DNA from: Escherichia phage phiEB49
DNA length: 47,180 bases
Sequence record: JF770475
Reading direction: 5' to 3' (one strand)
Within the stretch, counting starts at the first letter, position 1; every line of letters begins with the position of its first letter. The position numbers were made by a program, and so were the translations under genes. Below the pieces are notes generated by a model that was given only the letters and a program-made list of their open reading frames with translations, searched no databases and had not been told where the DNA came from. Below, in pieces: positions 1-32,872 of this stretch.

Positions 1-258
1 TTTGTGTGAAGTCATCATACCATTAAATGCAACCATTGCAAGCATTATCTACGCGTAGAAAAAAGTTATGACCTGTTATTTTTTATGGTTACGCCGCCAG
101 CCCTTGCACTGCAAGGTTGTTATACCGTAGAAAAATGTAGATTGATTTTTTACCCACCTCTTGATGCCCCTCTGGATTGCGCTTCTTGCAAGTATTTATC
201 ACCAGCGCAATATAAAAAATATCACCAATATCTCAGATAATCATGGTTACGGAATAAC

Positions 259-283: not shown

Positions 284-460
284 AAATCTAAAGTGTTGTT
301 ATATAAGGGATTTATTTTGTAACCAGCGCGTAAATTCGCGTGAATGTCGTAGATGTGGCTAAATGTCTACACGGTTGAACAGTTTATAACGCGTATATAA
401 AGGAAGGATCTCCGCGGGCGACAAAACCAACCAACTAGTTGATACATCCTCCTTCATTCC

Positions 461-1804: not shown

Positions 1805-3388
1805 ATGTTTGATTTTAACGAAGATAAGTTATCAGTAGAACAGGTAATGTCTGTTGCGGCAGCTGAGAATTTACCACCTTTGCGAGTTGCTATTAATGCA
1901 AATGGCTATCGTCAAAGCGCTTCATTCTGGAAGGCTCCGGTCGAGATTGATTCAACTGGTGATAAATATCCAGTCATCTCACTTGGAAATGATTGTGATG
2001 TTGTCGGGAAGCTATCTAGCAACATTGCACGCTCCGTTCAGTTCCCTGAATCATCTGCTTACATGCATTTTCTTGGATGCATATCAGCTGCAATGCTTGG
2101 TCGATTCACTGTTGAGTATCACGGAACTCAGCAGCCGACATCCCTGTACGTCGTAACCAGTCAGCCGCCATCAACTGGTAAATCAGCAATCAACTCACTC
2201 GCACTCGCGCCAATGATTGCAGAGACCGAGCGACTGAATGAGATTCGCAAGCGTGACCGTAAGAAGATTATGGCTAAGCTGTCAGCTCTGGCAAAAGAGA
2301 TGAAGCAGGAGAAGTCACCTTCCGAGATGGCTGGATTGTTCGAGGAAAAGGAAGAGTTAGAGGAGAAACTAGAGAAACTTTGCGATATCGTATTTCCAGT
2401 ATCAGACACTACGCCTGAAGGTCTTGCGCGAATAAACAACCGTCAGGGTAACTTCTCCGTGATTTCTGATGAAGCGACAAGTGTTAACTCATTACTCGGC
2501 ATGACATATGGCGATGGCTCGAAGAAAACAAACAGTGAACTTGTTCTTAAAGCATGGGATGCCGGTAACGTATCCATCGCACGCGCTAATGCAGAGAACA
2601 ACATGAGCTTTATCGCTATGGGCTGTATCTCAGTAATTGCTCAGGACGAAACGATCGTCGCAATCATGAATGCTGGCGCTCGCGGTATCGGTGTATCAGA
2701 GCGTTTCCTTCTTGTGCGTGAGAAGTCATTCCTTGGTGAGCGTGTTTTCGTCGATGATAATGGAGAATCAACATATGAGCCTATCGATGGCACCCTTAAA
2801 GCTGACTACTTCCGCCTGGTACATGAAATAATGAATGAGCAAGATGTGAGGCTTACCGTAAGCAATTCAGCGATGAAGCATCTCAACCGTGCGCGCCAGG
2901 AAATGGAACCTCACCTTGCAGATGGCGGTAAGTATTCACATACAATGTTGCGCGGCGCGTTAGGTAAAATGGATAAACAGGTAATTCGCATTGCGGCAGT
3001 TCTTCACACTATCCGCAATTGGTTCAACCCTAATGGCGGTAGTCCGCAGAAGTCAAGGGAGATTGAACTAGAAACGATGCAAGAGGCTTTATTGATGTTT
3101 GAAGAACTGAGTAAGACTTATTTGTCTTCCGCTAACGCGGCTGGTCACGCTGGTGATAATGCAGAGATGAATAAGCTAATTGATATCCTTATTAAGCAAG
3201 GTAAGAACAGCAAAGGAGTTGTAGGGTTGCGCTCACTATATGAAGCGGCGCGTAAGGTTAGACCGTTTGAGGCTCAGGCTGGCGTAATGGCTAAGATTAA
3301 AGACCATTTACTGCCGATGCTTGATGAGAAAAACTACACCTGCCTGACTGGCGATAAGATTTACATTAATCCACGACTGCTGGGGTGA
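1805..3388 (+). CDS. large early protein with P-loop-like motif (PSTGKS); N- and C-terminal domains shared with 46106..46648
   Basis: 527-aa ORF; N-terminus MFDF..RVAINANGYRQSA and C-terminus NSKGVVGLRSLYEAARKV..GDKIYINPRLL recur in the 180-aa paralog; function not assigned. Confidence 0.6.
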   Translation: MFDFNEDKLSVEQVMSVAAAENLPPLRVAINANGYRQSASFWKAPVEIDSTGDKYPVISLGNDCDVVGKLSSNIARSVQFPESSAYMHFLGCISAAMLGRFTVEYHGTQQPTSLYVVTSQPPSTGKSAINSLALAPMIAETERLNEIRKRDRKKIMAKLSALAKEMKQEKSPSEMAGLFEEKEELEEKLEKLCDIVFPVSDTTPEGLARINNRQGNFSVISDEATSVNSLLGMTYGDGSKKTNSELVLKAWDAGNVSIARANAENNMSFIAMGCISVIAQDETIVAIMNAGARGIGVSERFLLVREKSFLGERVFVDDNGESTYEPIDGTLKADYFRLVHEIMNEQDVRLTVSNSAMKHLNRARQEMEPHLADGGKYSHTMLRGALGKMDKQVIRIAAVLHTIRNWFNPNGGSPQKSREIELETMQEALLMFEELSKTYLSSANAAGHAGDNAEMNKLIDILIKQGKNSKGVVGLRSLYEAARKVRPFEAQAGVMAKIKDHLLPMLDEKNYTCLTGDKIYINPRLLG

Positions 3389-3545
3389 CTTATGAGAAAG
3401 ATTGAAAGTTTTGTCATGTATTCATTAATACCTATTCACTTGATTAGCATTTTGTTTTGCATACTATCATTAATCCACGACTTCTGGGGTAGATTATGAA
3501 AAATCTTAAAAACTTTATTGTGCATTCATTAATACCTTTTTTGTT
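3365..3545 (+). repeat. tandem duplication (2 copies, about 105 bp apart) covering the 3' end of the 527-aa gene and a small peptide gene
   Basis: ATTAATCCACGACT(G/T)CTGGGGT at 3365-3388 and 3469-3492, each followed by ATGA and a hydrophobic mini-ORF. Confidence 0.6.
3392..3499 (+). CDS. small hydrophobic peptide (35 aa)
   Basis: MRKIESFVMYSLIPIHLISILFCILSLIHDFWGRL; SD GGGGTGA; paralog of next ORF. Confidence 0.3.
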   Translation: MRKIESFVMYSLIPIHLISILFCILSLIHDFWGRL

Positions 3546-5528: not shown

Positions 5529-5573
5529 AATATAACCCATCTTTTGATTTTTGTTTTAGCAATTAGTGCTGTT
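5529..5573 (-). promoter_or_regulatory. dyad-motif promoter
   Basis: Core 5557-5571 (TAGCA-attag-TGCTG); minus-strand TATATT at 5529-5534; leader CATCGAAACAAACGAGAGGA. Confidence 0.5.
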
Positions 5574-18288: not shown

Positions 18289-18364
18289 TTCTCTATCTCT
18301 CTTTGTTTGTGTGAGTTAACTATGCCATCCGTGGCTAAGTTTATCCAATTGGTTTTGCCTATTA

Positions 18365-18580
18365 TTAACTAAATTTTGGAGGATTTGGTGCCAGCATGTA
18401 ATGCGTCACATCATCAATCTCCTCGCAACCAAGAGTAGTGAAGCACCTATACTTCTTAAACGTTTTAGGATCCACTAAGTAATTCCAATAAGCAGGCATC
18501 ACACCATAACTACTTGAATTAACAATAATAAATACTTGGTCATCGCTTGGCTTTGCGTCTTTAACATCAATCCATTTCAT
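18365..18580 (-). CDS. hypothetical protein (71 aa)
   Basis: ORF track. Confidence 0.4.
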   Translation of the reverse strand: MKWIDVKDAKPSDDQVFIIVNSSSYGVMPAYWNYLVDPKTFKKYRCFTTLGCEEIDDVTHYMLAPNPPKFS

Positions 18581-18654
18581 AATTAATACCTATATATATT
18601 ATTTAAATTAACTATATAATAATTTAATTTCTATTATCCAATCGGTTTTGCCTA

Positions 18655-19284
18655 TTAGTTCAGTTTCAAAATCTCGCTATTTTTATCAACCAGCTTATTA
18701 ATCAACTCATCCTTATCGTTTAACTTCTGGCAAAGAATTTCACACTGAGATTGATATGAGTAAACTAACTCCTGAGAATCGAAGTATCTACTAGAATCAA
18801 ACTTAAGCTCATACATCTTCTCGTCAACCTCTTCACCATTTGAAGCCTTATCAATGTACTTATAGATAATCTTCTCTAGCTTGTAAACTTCATCTTCGGC
18901 GCGATTTCGTGCTGCTAGCTCCTTGTTGGTTTGCAGCCTCTCCTTCAACACCATGTCGTAAGATACCATTTTTGCCATATGTTCCTTAAGTAGTTTGTTT
19001 TCCCTCTCAAGAACCTTAATCTTCTTAATCATGTTCATTCTTGCTTTTGCGCTATATTTTGCAACAAGGCAAATGGTGTGATCTTTGTCGAGAACTGCCA
19101 CATTGTGCATCTTTCCATTATGGTATTCTTGCTCCTCAAATTGAGGAGCACTACCTTCACCATACAGCTCAACGTACATCGCCTTAACATCCCTCATTAC
19201 GTTATCGTGACGAACATCAACAATTTTAGCAATATCAGCGGTTGTCATGGTCATCTCTTCATCAACTTTAATAATATCCATCAT
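18655..19284 (-). CDS. Rha-like phage regulatory protein with coiled-coil C-terminus
   Basis: N-terminal TTADIAKIVDVRHDNVMRDVKAM resembles Rha family; first gene of leftward operon from control region B. Confidence 0.5.
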   Translation of the reverse strand: MMDIIKVDEEMTMTTADIAKIVDVRHDNVMRDVKAMYVELYGEGSAPQFEEQEYHNGKMHNVAVLDKDHTICLVAKYSAKARMNMIKKIKVLERENKLLKEHMAKMVSYDMVLKERLQTNKELAARNRAEDEVYKLEKIIYKYIDKASNGEEVDEKMYELKFDSSRYFDSQELVYSYQSQCEILCQKLNDKDELINKLVDKNSEILKLN

Positions 19285-19326
19285 CTATTACTCGTTTATA
19301 GCAACGCCATTGCTGCCGATGAGTGC

Positions 19327-19371
19327 ACTATAACCAATCATGAAGCATCCTTTTTGATTATTCGTGCTATT
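19327..19371 (-). promoter_or_regulatory. dyad-motif promoter (half-site variant)
   Basis: TGCTA 19365-19369 with degenerate partner; minus TATAGT 19327-19332; leader before ATG 19284. Confidence 0.4.
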
Positions 19372-19726
19372 TTGTATATCGGTGTAAACCGCACATAAAT
19401 ACGCCTCGCGAGTCTCTGGGCTGCATGGATGCTGAATGTAACTGTTGTAACCAATGTATCCACCACTTTTGCACCCTATCTATATCTATATGCATTTCCT
19501 CCTTAACTGGAAATAAAACATAGTCTTTTAGAAAAACATACAAACATAGCTATAGAGAGTAGTTACAATATATACATAGTAATATATATAATAATAATAA
19601 TACTCTAAACCCTTATTATATAAGGATTTATAGATGTAACTAATGCGTATCTGCGCGTAAAAAGCGTATACAATTTTCCGCGGATGATATTGTATACATC
19701 GAGTTACATCGGTTACGCGTATATCA

Positions 19727-19772
19727 AATAGCACGATTTGCTAAAGACTCCAGCAGCAGCCTTTGCTATAGT
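19727..19772 (+). promoter_or_regulatory. dyad-motif promoter
   Basis: Core 19729-19743; 23-nt spacer; TGcTATAGT 19764-19772; leader CATCGAAACGAAAC and SD AAGGA before ATG 19813. Confidence 0.5.
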
Positions 19773-19812
19773 TACTCCATCGAAACGAAACACACTTACT
19801 AAGGAATACAAA

Positions 19813-20043
19813 ATGACTAACTTCATCAAATCAGCAATCATCGCAGCAGCAGTAATCATGACAGTAGGTTGTTCTTCTGGCCCGCGCCCTGACGGCTGGT
19901 GTGCGACTGAAGTTAACGGTTCTTGTGTTGCTAAATGGAAAGGCGGTGTAGTTGTAGCTTCAGGTGAAACTGATATCCGCTGGGATGGTATCAAGAACTT
20001 CTCTGGCTCAGTTAAAGATCACGGCACAAAGGAGTGGAAATAA
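19813..20043 (+). CDS. cor: Cor-like superinfection-exclusion lipoprotein
   Basis: 76 aa, lipobox MTVGCS, located next to J as in phi80/T1-type phages; ORF track 19738 start trimmed to ATG 19813. Confidence 0.5.
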
Positions 20044-27099: not shown

Positions 27100-27453
27100 T
27101 TACTGCATACTGGTAAAAACTTCTACAAACTGCATTGATACAGTCTGCAATTCCCTAGTATTTGGCGTGACGCTGATGCTATCCTGAGCCACAACAAACA
27201 GCTTAAGCTCACCCTGCGGATTTGTCCATGCGAACGGGGTGATGATATGTGCAAAGCAGAAGTCCAATACTTCCTTCCAGTTGGTGTTGGTGTATGTCAT
27301 GTTGTAGGTTCTGACGTTTGTGTTATATCCTCCACTTCCAATTTGCTTGTAGCCGCCACCAAATGAAACCGTCCTTACGTTGCTTGTATTGGTGAAGGAA
27401 CCCCCTCCATTTTGAATCTGAGTACACCAGTTAAAACTTTCTAATGCCATCAT
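27100..27453 (-). CDS. M: minor tail protein (lambda M-like)
   Basis: 117 aa, position between tape measure and L. Confidence 0.65.
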   Translation of the reverse strand: MMALESFNWCTQIQNGGGSFTNTSNVRTVSFGGGYKQIGSGGYNTNVRTYNMTYTNTNWKEVLDFCFAHIITPFAWTNPQGELKLFVVAQDSISVTPNTRELQTVSMQFVEVFTSMQ

Positions 27454-27929
27454 TTACTCCCGTGATTTTTATGAAATCCGTGCTCTACCTCAGCATCCCT
27501 TCTTACCTTTATCGCATCTTCGAGATTTTCATAAATCCCAAGATAGTATTTTTTACCATTTGCGTGTATTGATGCGCACCACTTTGATGCAGCTTTATGC
27601 CACTCAACGCCTACGCATCCACTCTTATTTCTCTTGCTTATGCTTAAGTTCTGATTGTTATGGAATATTGTAACAACCCTTAGGTTTTCAATCCTGTTAT
27701 CTGTCCTGACGTGATTTATATGATCGATTTGCATTCCTTCTGGTATTGGGCCATTATGCATCTCCCAAATCAATCTATGAGCAAGCATGCGATTCTTCAT
27801 GTATGATACCGTTATGTAACCTTGCTTTGTTTTTGCTCCAACGATGTCACCAATGTTGGTCCTATATCTTGGCTTCACCTTCCAGTAAAGAACACCATCT
27901 CTATACTCAAAAATATCATTCCAGTTCAT
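27450..27929 (-). CDS. HNH homing endonuclease with AP2 domain
   Basis: HRL.WE...G.IP.G..IDHIN..R.DNRI.NLR plus AP2-like C-terminus; stop overlaps M start. Confidence 0.75.
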   Translation of the reverse strand: MNWNDIFEYRDGVLYWKVKPRYRTNIGDIVGAKTKQGYITVSYMKNRMLAHRLIWEMHNGPIPEGMQIDHINHVRTDNRIENLRVVTIFHNNQNLSISKRNKSGCVGVEWHKAASKWCASIHANGKKYYLGIYENLEDAIKVRRDAEVEHGFHKNHGSK

Positions 27930-28002: not shown

Positions 28003-30979
28003 AACTGTAACCGCGCAAGAACTGGTAAGCAGTCCCGCCTTGCTGGAAGGACTGAGTAATCTCTTCTGCGATGATAACCCTGATACCAGATTCTAACTGT
28101 TTAGCGTCATTACCGCCACCACCGCCAAGACCTGTCTGAACGGTAACATTCACACCACCAACGTTAACATTGCTTCCACCAACAAGTCCACCAGTCGCAT
28201 AACCAGGACCAGACCCAACGACACCGCCGTTTGCGTATCCGCGCATCAACTTGTACAGGTTGTCTACGCCAATCCTTGAAGTTGCCTCCTTCGTAAACAC
28301 GAATTCACCACGATGCACCGTACCAGCTGGTTCATACTTACCTCCGTTACCAGTGTAGCCACCAGATGCAAAGCCAAAAGATTTACCAAAGTTAGATATG
28401 GCTGTACCTGTTGAGCCGCCACTACCGCCAAAACTAGATATCGTTGACTCAATCGCCTTAATCAAAAGAAGCTGCGTTGCAATGCGTGCAATCTGCTTCA
28501 AAATCGATGCTGTAAACTCACGGAAATTAGCCTCACCAGTAGTTACCAGGTTTGTGATCTGGTCAGTCAATCCATTGAAAGCACTCATTGCCAGCTCAGA
28601 GCCAATCTGGTTGAAGTTAGACAATTCGTCAGCCGTCTCTGCAAATGCAGACTTAACTCCAGCCAACCAATCGCCACGCAAGGCATCTTCCTGATTGTAG
28701 AAATTCTGACGAGCCTGCAATAGTGCCTGGAAATCAGTGTCATCTACGGAGCCACCTTTAGAAACTTGCTGAGCCTTAAGCGCTTCTATCTCCTTCAGTC
28801 TGTCAGCTTCTCGATTTGCTAATCCAGCACCAAGGCTAACTGATGAGGCTTCAGCGTTAATCTGGCGTGTCTTCTTGATGTTATCATCAAGGAGTTTATT
28901 GGCCCTTTCCTGTAATACAATCTGGTCTCCGAGCTCAGCCTTCTCTCGAGCAAGCCCTAAGATTTTATCCTGTTGCAACAGTAAAGCCCTCTGTTGCTTT
29001 GTGATGGTTCCGTCTGCGAGCCTTTCATTAAGGATTGCAAACTTAGCTTCTTCTGCGAACAACTGCTTGCGCTCGTTGCTGACAACATCACTAATCTGGC
29101 GGTGTTCCTGAAGAACCTTAAGCTGAGCTTGCAGGGCTAAAACGCCAGACTCGTAGTTGATGGTAAGGTCTCGCTGGTCCTTAACACCCTCCTTCCTTTT
29201 CTTGTTTGCCTCCTCAATGTCCTTTAGCTCCTGCTCTCTAGCTTTCCTGCGCTTCTCGAACTCGGCATCAGACTCACCAGTTCTCTGCTGCTCTTCCTGG
29301 GTTGAGGTAACATAACCAAGCTCACCTTTACGAATCCTTGCGTCACGCTCAGCTACTGACTTAACTAACTCTTCGTTAGCTTTCTTTATCCCTTCGTTTT
29401 GCTTTTCGAACTGCTGAACTAGCTCGCTACCAACCCCGTCGGCACCAGGAATGTTCTGGAATGCTTTAATTGTTGAGATCAGGAAGTTATTAATCAGAAC
29501 ATCACCCTGACCAATCAATAGCTGAATCTGCTCAATAGTACCGGCAACAACATCTACGATGAGGTTTAGTGCGCCAAGCGTCCTGTTACCAATATCAGTC
29601 CAAACCCGAGAAACGAAGTTTTTGAAGCTATCCCAGGCCCTCTCGAGAGGCGTTAGTGACTCTGCAACTTTGTTTAGGCGATTCTCCATTACATCAGCAA
29701 ATAGCTTCGTAGCAGCCGTTACAGCCTGCGTCTGACCCTCTGTAATCCTAATCTGCTCGATGTACTTAAGCTGACCAGCAGTTAAGAAGTTAAACTGCTT
29801 ATCAAGCTCAGCCAGACCTTTGACCGGGTCATTTGCGATTTTATCGAAGTTCTTGACGATATCATCAGCTGAATCACCAGTAACAGTTGCCCAGCGCGCA
29901 GTTGCCTCGGTAATAATTGAAATCTGAGCTACCGTGCGGCTTCCACTTGCGACCAATCCATTAGCAATCTCCTGACCAAGGCCTTGAGTTGCTCCAGCAG
30001 CCTCAGCCGCATTTCTCGCCAGATTCTGAACTGCACCTGCTGATAAGTTTGCTGATTGCCCGGTCAGGGTAAGCGTCTGGTTTAACTGCGATGTGTTCTG
30101 ATAGGCCTGATAAGCTGATAGTCCCAAAGCGCCAAGAGCAACACCCAGGGCTCCAGCTGCGACAATGAACGGATTTAATGCAGCAAGAGCAAACCTGAAC
30201 GTGTTGGCAACACCACCAAAGCTATCCTTAATCTGACCACCCTGCTGAATTGCAATTAGCCAGATTGGAATGCCGCCAGCCAATGAAGTTCCAATATCTG
30301 TAATCTGCGCTGGCAACTGCCTAATGGCGTTCTTATATGCGCCAACAGATAGACCAGAACGCTGCAATGCCTGAGATTGCCTTGTTAATGCTGCTGCGGA
30401 TTGGTCGGCTGCCGCTCCGATTTGTGCAATAATTGGCGCAGCCTGGCTTGAGACTCCTAGTTCTGCCGCCCTTAGCTTTAACAGCTCCTCGCGCGTTAAT
30501 GTTGCTGCCTGAGCCTCAGCTTGCAAAGACTTGAGGAATCTTTCAGCCTGGTTTGCGGCTTGAGCCTTAGCTTTTGACGCCTCGATTGCAGCCCTGCCTT
30601 CCTCTGTTAATGCACGCTGCGAGTTACGAAGCCTATTAGTCTGAGTCTCAAGAGCCTCACTTAAACGGTAGAATTCAGCCTCAGGAACAACGCCAGCAGA
30701 GAATGATTTATCCAGTGCGTCAGCTGCTTCCTGTAGTTTGCGAAGTTTTCCTGCTGTTGGGTCGATTGCCGTTTGCAGTTGACGGAAAGCCTGACGCTGT
30801 TCAGACAAGTATCTTGCCGTGTCGCGGGCCTGATTCTTGGCAACCAACTCAGCGTTAACGAACTCACTAACACCAGCAGCCGCCTGTTCATTGGCGCGTT
30901 TAAATTCTTGCAGGGACTTTGTGCCCTGGTCAACCTGGCGAACGTCAACGCCAAGTGTGATACCTGCAAATTCTGCCAT
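28001..30979 (-). CDS. tail tape measure protein
   Basis: About 990 aa, Ala/Gln-rich coiled-coil, Gly-rich C-terminus; start set to ATG 30979 after GGAGG. Confidence 0.85.
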   Translation of the reverse strand: MAEFAGITLGVDVRQVDQGTKSLQEFKRANEQAAAGVSEFVNAELVAKNQARDTARYLSEQRQAFRQLQTAIDPTAGKLRKLQEAADALDKSFSAGVVPEAEFYRLSEALETQTNRLRNSQRALTEEGRAAIEASKAKAQAANQAERFLKSLQAEAQAATLTREELLKLRAAELGVSSQAAPIIAQIGAAADQSAAALTRQSQALQRSGLSVGAYKNAIRQLPAQITDIGTSLAGGIPIWLIAIQQGGQIKDSFGGVANTFRFALAALNPFIVAAGALGVALGALGLSAYQAYQNTSQLNQTLTLTGQSANLSAGAVQNLARNAAEAAGATQGLGQEIANGLVASGSRTVAQISIITEATARWATVTGDSADDIVKNFDKIANDPVKGLAELDKQFNFLTAGQLKYIEQIRITEGQTQAVTAATKLFADVMENRLNKVAESLTPLERAWDSFKNFVSRVWTDIGNRTLGALNLIVDVVAGTIEQIQLLIGQGDVLINNFLISTIKAFQNIPGADGVGSELVQQFEKQNEGIKKANEELVKSVAERDARIRKGELGYVTSTQEEQQRTGESDAEFEKRRKAREQELKDIEEANKKRKEGVKDQRDLTINYESGVLALQAQLKVLQEHRQISDVVSNERKQLFAEEAKFAILNERLADGTITKQQRALLLQQDKILGLAREKAELGDQIVLQERANKLLDDNIKKTRQINAEASSVSLGAGLANREADRLKEIEALKAQQVSKGGSVDDTDFQALLQARQNFYNQEDALRGDWLAGVKSAFAETADELSNFNQIGSELAMSAFNGLTDQITNLVTTGEANFREFTASILKQIARIATQLLLIKAIESTISSFGGSGGSTGTAISNFGKSFGFASGGYTGNGGKYEPAGTVHRGEFVFTKEATSRIGVDNLYKLMRGYANGGVVGSGPGYATGGLVGGSNVNVGGVNVTVQTGLGGGGGNDAKQLESGIRVIIAEEITQSFQQGGTAYQFLRGYS

Positions 30980-32389: not shown

Positions 32390-32872
32390 TTAATATTTAA
32401 TGTCTCTCATTGCATGATTGCGATGATAGCCTAATGAAACCTCTGCAACAATTCTTGCTTCGCACGCTGAGATAAAGGACTTGTAATGACCGAGGCTTAT
32501 AGCCTTACCATTGTCTGATATCATTGCGTGCCACAAATCGTCGCGCTGGTTGTAGTTTACACCATTGACGCCAGGCAGTCTACGACGCCTTTTACATAAA
32601 TTTCTTCTATTTCCAGATGCTGAAACGCATCGGAGGTTTTCTATACGATTATCATCCCTAATGCCGTTTATGTGATCAATTTGCATTCCATCAGGTATCG
32701 CCCCATTGTGCATCTCCCATATAATCCTATGCACATACATCTTACCTGTCATTGTGACGTACATTTGTAGGTATCCATTTGGTTTGTTGTATCCGAGTCG
32801 CTTACTACAACCATTCTTCGTGAGATATCCTTCGCTGTGATATTCGTAATTTGAATTTAGAAAATCTTTCAT
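32390..32872 (-). CDS. HNH homing endonuclease with AP2 domain
   Basis: HRIIWEMHNGAIPDGMQIDHINGIRDDNRIENLR motif. Confidence 0.75.
   Translation of the reverse strand: MKDFLNSNYEYHSEGYLTKNGCSKRLGYNKPNGYLQMYVTMTGKMYVHRIIWEMHNGAIPDGMQIDHINGIRDDNRIENLRCVSASGNRRNLCKRRRRLPGVNGVNYNQRDDLWHAMISDNGKAISLGHYKSFISACEARIVAEVSLGYHRNHAMRDIKY

Follow-up and report, generated by a model that had tools for sequence, protein, structure and literature searches.

The pac-type Bacillus siphovirus SPP1, with a genome of ~44 kb, carries two replication origins that lie kilobases apart and share direct repeats together with an AT-rich unwinding element, and it encodes an exonuclease, an annealing recombinase, a single-strand DNA-binding protein (SSB) and a Holliday-junction resolvase (PMC6316719). 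The second of these origins, oriR, has been proposed to stall replication forks and thereby trigger recombination-dependent concatemer synthesis (PMC6316719). For the T1 family, two recent genome papers report that no replication origin was identified (PMC11447400, PMC7718038), and replication mapping for any T1-like phage was not found in literature searches directed at origins, transcription or promoters. Here we describe two related AT-rich DNA modules in Escherichia phage phiEB49 (record JF770475), module A at 244-398 and module B at 19560-19721, both on the plus strand, and consider whether they are a pair of origin-like elements. The window analyzed is the complete genome of 47,180 bp (an IMG/VR entry), which BLAST comparison against phage records places among the Rogunavirus-like Drexlerviridae, i.e., a T1-like coliphage. 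Position 1 of the record cuts through the leader of a leftward gene, and the sequence is therefore circularly continuous.

Both modules are located where transcription diverges. Region A is the interval from a leftward gene (47163) to a rightward gene (661), and region B is likewise a point from which genes diverge. The equivalents of regions A and B in Rtp are the rtp75/rtp1 and rtp45/rtp46 junctions, and those in T1 are the record ends and the cor/orf49 junction, respectively.

One conserved element in two copies

Modules A and B are paralogous copies of one DNA element. Local alignment of 230-440 against 19530-19740 gave a score of 72, as compared to 24.0 +/- 4.2 (maximum 42) among 500 dinucleotide-preserving shuffles (z ~11). 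When each region was compared with the whole genome on both strands, its best non-self match was the other region, with the runners-up scoring 27-36. A profile hidden Markov model (HMM) built from 29 copies of the element found two matches in the genome (nhmmer, E = 3e-47 for B and E = 2e-32 for A), and the next match had E = 0.88. The proposal of an earlier sequence-only reading, that two related AT-rich elements with ordered common modules exist, is thus borne out by both alignment and HMM, and the refuting condition set in that reading, a similarity no greater than between random AT-rich segments, does not hold. The strings quoted in that reading are also correctly placed, with (ATA)n at 19586-19602, TTATATAAGGATTTAT at 19616-19631, GCGCGTAAA at 19653-19661, CCGCGG at 19678-19683 and ACGCGTATA at 19715-19723 in B, and TTATATAAGGGATTTAT at 299-315, GCGCGTAAATTCGCGT at 326-341, ACGCGTATATAAAGG at 389-403 and CCGCGG at 412-417 in A. 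CCGCGG, which had been counted as a shared module, has to be withdrawn from the list, as its positions in A and B are not homologous in this genome.

The A/B pair is kept across genera. A-type and B-type copies are both present in AHP42, Rtp, Veterinaerplatzvirus, A110b, and the Nouzillyviruses TH21 and TH27, with A-type homologs found at the same locus as module A. In the genera that have both copies (Rogunavirus, Rtpvirus, Veterinaerplatzvirus, and Nouzillyvirus), the two point the same way and occupy the two large regions of divergent transcription. Across 2.9 million viral contigs, a strict pattern, ATAATAATAAT-N12-20-TATATA-N12-TGTA-N6-GYGTA, was matched only 24 times, in every case in a T1-like genome of 44-51 kb; 10 of the 14 contigs have two same-strand matches and 4 have one. 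The A locus of T1 holds a diverged homolog (E = 2e-5, profile HMM). The B locus of T1 gives a partial, non-significant match (E = 1.8) with a similar layout, in which TGTTACAC and GATATACAA sites flank ~75 nt of AT-rich DNA. The element, ~160 bp long and found exactly twice in each of the genomes examined from the four genera, carries no annotation in the phage records checked other than the promoters predicted in AHP24, AHP42, AKS96, and ETEP102.

Among Rogunaviruses, module B is 92-97% identical over its full length, whereas the adjacent lipoprotein gene (cor) is 74-78% identical and the next gene (orf323) 66-71%. In the comparison with Braunvirinae and Nouzillyvirus, module B is 79-82% identical at full coverage and most neighboring genes are 65-80% identical, the exceptions being cor (93%) and orf323 (82%) of TH21. 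The module is under strong purifying selection and is an ancient, duplicated, DNA-level element. An origin of the A/B similarity in low-complexity chance, or as a functionless relic of a duplication, might be suggested by the AT-richness of both regions and by their microsatellite. A third extreme AT-rich segment of the genome (18558-18637) does not match A or B, however, and is not a third copy, so that AT-richness alone is insufficient to account for the match. Together with the distance from the shuffled scores, the retention of the pair across genera, and a conservation above that of adjacent genes, this effectively refutes chance or relic status.

Anatomy of the element

From left to right, the order common to A and B is a site of the GTTACA type, an (AAT)n tract, an IHF-like core, a GTAAC site in inverted orientation, three repeats of the GCGTA type (core GCGT/CGTA, phased by 10 and 9 nt), an inverted repeat, and a (T/A)ACGCGTA element. 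In the 29-copy alignment, the columns invariant across A and B types are ATAATAATAAT, TAAA, TT..TATATA, TGTA, G.GTA, GCGT, CGT(A), ACA, and AC..G.A.

Module A begins with the left GTTAC-type site TGGTTAC (244-250, plus strand), the inverted partner of GTAACCA at 319-325. The (ATA/AAT)n tract (259-286) is a candidate DNA-unwinding element, within which ATAATAATAAT is invariant in 29/29 aligned copies. It is followed by an IHF-like core, TAACAACACTTTA (289-301, minus strand), which has one mismatch to WATCAANNNNTTR and occupies the column of the exact IHF consensus elsewhere. The middle inverted site TTGTAACCA (317-325, plus strand) co-varies with the left site, and its TGTA is invariant in all copies. 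Three phased direct repeats occupy 326-351 (plus strand; GCGTA at 328, GCGTG at 338 and TCGTA at 347, spaced by 10 and 9), and their G.GTA, GCGT, and CGT are again columns that never vary. The right boundary is ATAACGCGTATAT (386-398, plus strand), with ACGCGT at 389-394 inside the (T/A)ACGCGTA element at 388-395.

Module B opens with the left sites TAGTTACA and ATATACATA (19560-19578, plus strand), comprising a GTTAC-type site at 19560-19567 and an ATATACA element at 19570-19578; from Rogunavirus through to T1, GTTACA is retained with (G)ATATACA after it. The AT tract with (ATA)n (19568-19603) is a candidate DNA-unwinding element by virtue of its duplex instability. Next comes a degenerate IHF-like core (19606-19618, minus strand) in the same column as the exact sites of other genera, and in both modules it is TAA-N4-TTG(A/T)T on the plus strand that corresponds to the minus-strand core WATCAANNNNTTR (289-301 and 19606-19618). 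The middle inverted site ATGTAACTA (19634-19642, plus strand) is complementary to the left TAGTTACA and right AGTTACATC sites. By motif count, three GCGTA repeats start at 19645, 19655, and 19664 (19645-19668, plus strand), and 4 of the 45 plus-strand GCGTA occurrences in the genome lie inside the 162-nt module, where ~0.15 would be expected. An inverted repeat, GTATACAAT / ATTGTATAC, can be read around CCGCGG (19666-19697); it is not a conserved hairpin because its arms lose complementarity in other genera. At its right end the module has the sites AGTTACAT and GGTTACG as well as the palindrome TACGCGTA (19702-19721, plus strand), the GTTAC sites lying at 19702-19717 and the (T/A)ACGCGTA element at 19714-19721. 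The core of this palindrome terminates module B and a variant, AACGCGTA, terminates module A, and 3 of the 5 genomic ACGCGT sites fall in regions A and B.

Duplex stability was calculated in 80-nt windows. The window 19564-19643 in B (-77.9 kcal/mol) is tied with 18558-18637 as the least stable of the genome, and 210-289 in A (-81.5 kcal/mol) is the third least stable; with a genome mean of -107.7 kcal/mol (standard deviation 6.1), A and B are ~4-5 standard deviations away. In 13 of 24 copies, the exact IHF consensus stands at the same column of the alignment; in this genome, A departs from it by one mismatch and B by two. The sole exact IHF core consensus WATCAANNNNTTR in the 47-kb genome is TATCAACTAGTTG at 432-444 (minus strand), ~35 nt to the right of A.

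Within a module, the GTTACA-type sites at the left, in the middle, and at the right have direct, inverted, and direct orientation and change together, the A copies of Veterinaerplatzvirus having GTATACA at all three. Since the third, direct copy co-varies with the left and middle sites, the pattern points to a repeated recognition site, not to base pairing. The left/middle inverted repeat was accordingly rejected as a stem: its two-sided changes are real, but the third copy changes in step. Clusters of the element's motifs occur mainly at loci A and B, and for that reason the motifs do not look like a genome-wide regulon. Sites resembling those of OmpR, CpxR, and LexA were matched by hand and are not relied on.

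A possible pair of replication origins

The best reading of modules A and B is that they are protein-bound DNA elements, neither gene nor RNA. Two hallmarks of origins are seen in both copies, namely an easily melted AT tract and clustered, phased short repeats adjoining it. We tentatively favor the view that A and B are paired replication-origin-like elements between divergent promoters. Paired origins were among the functions suggested from the sequence; they give the best fit to the anatomy and have a precedent in SPP1 oriL and oriR, whereas the replication function and every binding partner are putative.

If the modules are origins, a phage protein would bind the GTTACA/GTATACA-type sites (direct-inverted-direct) and, along one helix face, the three GCGTA-type repeats. 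The leading candidate for this protein would be the DUF3987 (MCM-related SF6) helicase, whose gene lies immediately to the right of A and which may act as its own initiator. IHF would bend the center of the module, negative supercoiling from the flanking divergent transcription could assist melting of the (AAT)n tract, and phage primase and host Pol III would then begin synthesis. Module B, which lies beside the exonuclease-containing recombination operon, may be a second origin, or else a bound barrier that would trigger recombination-dependent concatemer synthesis as proposed for SPP1 oriR. The full version of this scheme, in which A and B are T1-type origins fired by a DUF3987 helicase-initiator on phased 5-6 bp sites and B is also an SPP1-oriR-like barrier in the switch from theta to concatemer replication, is speculative, and we consider it rather unlikely as stated.

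The DUF3987 protein gene (1805-3388, plus strand; Pfam PF13148, E = 6e-43), a candidate replicative helicase/initiator gene, belongs to the operon right of A. Its product of 527 aa is 56% identical to T1 gp09, and the gene is flanked by small genes without assigned function; no sequence relative in the PDB and no NCBIfam name were found for the protein. The DUF3987 family has been assigned to the SF6, MCM-related replicative helicases, which have a winged helix at the C terminus (PMC4889955), and one member was demonstrated to act as a helicase (PMC11724360). It is the adjacency of the gene to module A that makes the protein, with its predicted C-terminal winged helix, a candidate initiator. 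As a separate observation, a 73-nt direct repeat (79% identical, 3364-3436 and 3468-3540, spaced 104 nt) reaches from the end of the DUF3987 gene into the intergenic stretch after it, and each of its copies has an ATG after GGGGTG or GGGGTA.

Several observations weigh against an origin function. The repeat units are short (5-6 bp core at 10-bp spacing), unlike classical iterons of 17-22 bp, and the IHF core is degenerate in module B of this genome (two mismatches). DnaA-box-like sites are inconsistent, boxes with one mismatch being present in the B-type copies of Braunvirinae only. The GC skew provides no independent replication signal; GC and AT skew are uninformative in this respect because they track gene orientation and transcription. 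The GCGTA triplet is missing from the B-equivalent of T1. Searches of a plasmid collection and of 5,426 complete E. coli genomes found no homolog of the module beside rep genes and returned chance AT-rich matches only. Lastly, the same anatomy fits a regulated bidirectional promoter.

Competing explanations

Binding sites for a second regulator, another of the suggested functions, remain a serious rival. In its developed form, the main rival of the origin reading, this explanation takes the module as an early promoter that works in both directions, carries an array of operator or activator sites, and plays no role in replication; we regard it as possible, with some reserve. Host sigma70 polymerase would use overlapping -10 elements in (AAT)n to initiate leftward (TTTAGA/TTTACT-16..18-TATATT/TATTAT) and possibly also rightward (GTTACA-17..19-TATAAT), with the GCGTA repeats at ~-70 to -95 of the leftward start. 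A regulator from phage or host would bind the GCGTA and GTTACA sites and set the timing of the flanking operons, and IHF would modulate this. The modules are indeed located exactly at the divergent-transcription switches and directly upstream of a rightward promoter unit. The leftward sigma70-like pair, which counts against the origin reading as well, stands at one column in nearly all copies with 8-9.5 bits (in B a candidate TTTAGA-17-TATATT at 19581-19609, minus strand, by prediction only; its A counterpart is at 264-292), and the rightward GTTACA-17..19-TATAAT pair is present in many copies. Likewise, the depositors of ETEP102 annotated overlapping plus- and minus-strand promoters at the same spot. 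In Braunvirinae, further GTTACA/GTATATC sites continue to the left, surround a good sigma70 promoter of the recombination operon, and have the look of an operator array, and the palindrome TACGCGTA is also found upstream of a leftward sigma70-like promoter (41->14). On the other hand, the number of promoter-like matches (3 in B, 7 in A) is within ~2 standard deviations of the dinucleotide-shuffle expectation (~3), the -35 hexamers are weak (4/6), the plus-strand spacing is mostly 19 nt, and the IHF consensus accounts equally well for the leftward -35 bases. Each flank is already served by a promoter of its own (the direct-repeat units described below in this genome, ATGTCA-17-TATAAT in Rtp), the lone open reading frame (ORF) for which the leftward promoter would be needed lacks conservation, and ~160 nt of dense conservation exceeds the need of a simple promoter. 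Neither transcription-start mapping nor a transcriptome for T1-like (Drexlerviridae) phages was found in the literature. The origin and promoter readings are not mutually exclusive.

Packaging was a further suggestion, and it appears improbable that the module is a pac recognition element, with the terminase small subunit on repeats around an IHF bend and B as a secondary or ancestral site. In its size, short repeats, and IHF site it does recall P1 pac and lambda cosB. Region A is by convention the opening point of T1-like genomes, and the authors of the SU57 genome put the genome (read-coverage) end and the T1 pac in the untranslated part of region A (PMC7718038). Position 1 of the T1 and Rtp records, however, maps to ~528 and the repeat zone at ~470-568. 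If those records were opened at pac, the shared module is probably not pac, since this zone (476-568) is outside module A and absent at B. In addition, the terminase genes are ~20 kb from B and no report was found of a second packaging series starting near cor. A partition site, also put forward from the sequence, lacks support in a virulent headful-packaging phage. A small non-coding RNA in two paralogous copies is more improbable still. The strong conservation of a non-coding sequence, the fold of B as a single sequence, slightly better than shuffles (z = -2.1 plus strand, -3.1 minus strand), and the complementary left and middle sites with some two-sided changes could all be cited for it. 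The 29-copy consensus fold, however, reaches -3.1 kcal/mol for the plus and 0.0 for the minus strand, with a trivial 5-bp helix only; the hairpin arms of B are not kept complementary in other genera, and pairing cannot explain the co-variation of the third, direct site. An Rfam search of the module returned nothing at the gathering threshold or at E = 1, and no terminator was found after the module. Structured RNA was rejected on the near-empty consensus fold of both strands and the lack of an Rfam match.

Three further observations concern the sequences around the two modules. To the left of module B, Rtp (28170-28290) and ETEP102 (200-320) have extra GTTACA(T/C), GTATACA, and GTGTATATC sites, which reach ~100 nt (Rtp) to 200 nt (ETEP102) leftward into the first rtp46 codons and flank a near-consensus sigma70 promoter, ATGTCA-17-TATAAT. 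Near the left end of the record (14-60), there is a good leftward sigma70-type promoter without the 21-nt repeat described below, TTGCAA-16-TATGAT with an upstream TG, and a 10-bp palindrome, CTACGCGTAG, with the TACGCGTA core found at the end of module B, is just upstream of it. To the right of module A, 476-568 holds a 46-47-nt repeat in tandem (74% identical) with many AATCATTGCA and TGCAATA motifs, and this zone may be the pac neighborhood.

The flanks of module B and the 21-nt repeat

The 528-bp gap 19285-19812, in which module B lies, had been described as non-coding, but it is not empty. It contains two promoter units with a direct repeat (DR) and a short ORF. The leftward DR unit (19327-19371, minus strand; 21-nt repeat 19371->19350, -10 at 19332->19327) serves an anti-repressor-like gene and the recombination operon. 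The rightward unit (AATAGCACGATTTGCTAAAGAC ... TATAGT, 19727-19772, plus strand) abuts module B and is upstream of a lipoprotein gene (19813-20043). The short ORF (19495->19367, minus strand) has a strong Shine-Dalgarno site and was found in Rogunaviruses only; as its length varies from 14 to 57 codons among these close relatives and it is absent elsewhere, it is doubtful as a gene. A protein-coding role of the module was likewise rejected, the sole ORF with a strong Shine-Dalgarno site being this variably shortened, Rogunavirus-confined one. The neighboring genes had been described as a leftward recombination operon and a rightward Cor gene. The first leftward gene is anti-repressor-like, and the RecE-like exonuclease gene of the operon adjoining module B is further left; the Cor assignment agrees with the syntenic position, but the product is a 76-aa lipoprotein that matches T1 Cor over the signal peptide and lipobox alone.

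The DR in these units is the 21-nt direct repeat aaATAGCACnnnTTGnTAAAA described for TLS and T1 (PMC11447400), the role of which is listed as an open question in the TLS paper (PMC11447400). In the present genome, ~20 consensus-like copies were found among 31 loose matches, upstream of most operons and always oriented with transcription. Copies at 19727-19748 and 587-608 abut the right end of B and lie ~190 nt right of A, respectively, and no copy was found inside 244-398 or 19560-19721. In the A copies of Braunvirinae, a variant of the repeat comes after the module. The repeat (AAATAGCACnnnTTGCTAAAG) is positioned at 587, 1264, 1727, and 19727 on the plus strand and at 5573, 7066, 8501, 10897, 17138, 19371, 26295, 28002, 32944, 35449, 40596, 42712, 44977, 45293, and 46110 on the minus strand. 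It is followed, ~20 nt on, by a TATAGT/TATATT/TATTAT hexamer, and the leader is often conserved (tACTCCATCGAAAC... or ...TTCACACAAACGAGAGG). A variant upstream element, AATAGGCAAAACC[G/A]ATTGGATAA, occurs in two copies before two small leftward genes (18340-18372 and 18640-18662, minus strand). After the second copy comes the genome's most AT-rich 60-nt stretch (18577-18636, 92% A+T), which is unrelated to A and B.

Elsewhere in the genome, ARAGORN predicts adjacent tRNA-Val(AAC) and tRNA-Arg(CCT) genes (43830-43906 and 43908-43983, minus strand). The Rfam gathering threshold yields tRNA-Arg alone, and related published genomes report a single Arg tRNA. Three paralogous ORFs of ~160 aa (27450-27929, 32390-32872, and 42154-42642, minus strand) share a 107-nt repeat family, 67-74% identical. 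They match Rtp HNH endonuclease genes by position, which suggests multiple insertions of homing-type endonucleases.

Comparison with known systems

T1 is a classic T phage and a notorious laboratory and fermentation contaminant. The element is a clonable candidate for a T1-like origin or a master early control region, and it would make a T1-type origin testable. Either outcome would anchor the replication and transcription map of Drexlerviridae and provide a target for engineering or disabling these phages; should the DUF3987 link be true, this would be the first origin for an SF6-helicase phage replicon.

Within the same genomes, the module is distinct from the T1/TLS 21-nt repeat, which has a different sequence and ~20 copies as compared to two. 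Symmetric bidirectional bacterial promoters need ~40-60 bp. The module is like them in its overlapping opposite-strand -10 elements, AT-rich DNA, and divergent gene pair, but has an extra 100 nt of conserved repeats that fall outside that model. Classical iterons are 17-22 bp long, have a spacing of ~22 bp, and are bound by a Rep protein. The iteron origins of pSC101 and R6K gamma resemble the module in the order of their parts, namely an AT tract, an IHF site, three direct repeats, an inverted repeat, and the promoter of the adjacent gene, whereas the module has 5-6 bp cores at 9-10 bp spacing; neither a Rep homolog nor a consistent DnaA box was found here.

Short sites of 5-8 bp, bound by the DNA-binding domain of the replicative helicase, characterize the origins of staphylococcal pathogenicity islands (SaPI ori), P4 (ori and crr), and SV40 and papillomaviruses, and P4 requires two separated cis elements with the same repeats. 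In these helicase-initiator origins, as in the module, short direct and inverted sites flank an AT-rich tract. The helicases of these systems belong to SF3, whereas the candidate here belongs to SF6 and its binding to the module is putative; a sequence relation is absent. The origins of SPP1 also show no sequence similarity to the modules. They use the initiator gp38 with a DnaB-type helicase and a loader, in place of the candidate DUF3987/SF6 helicase; oriL lies inside gene 38 and function is proven for SPP1, whereas modules A and B are intergenic with a presumptive function. What SPP1 oriL and oriR have in common with A and B is that two similarly organized elements are present in one pac-type siphovirus.

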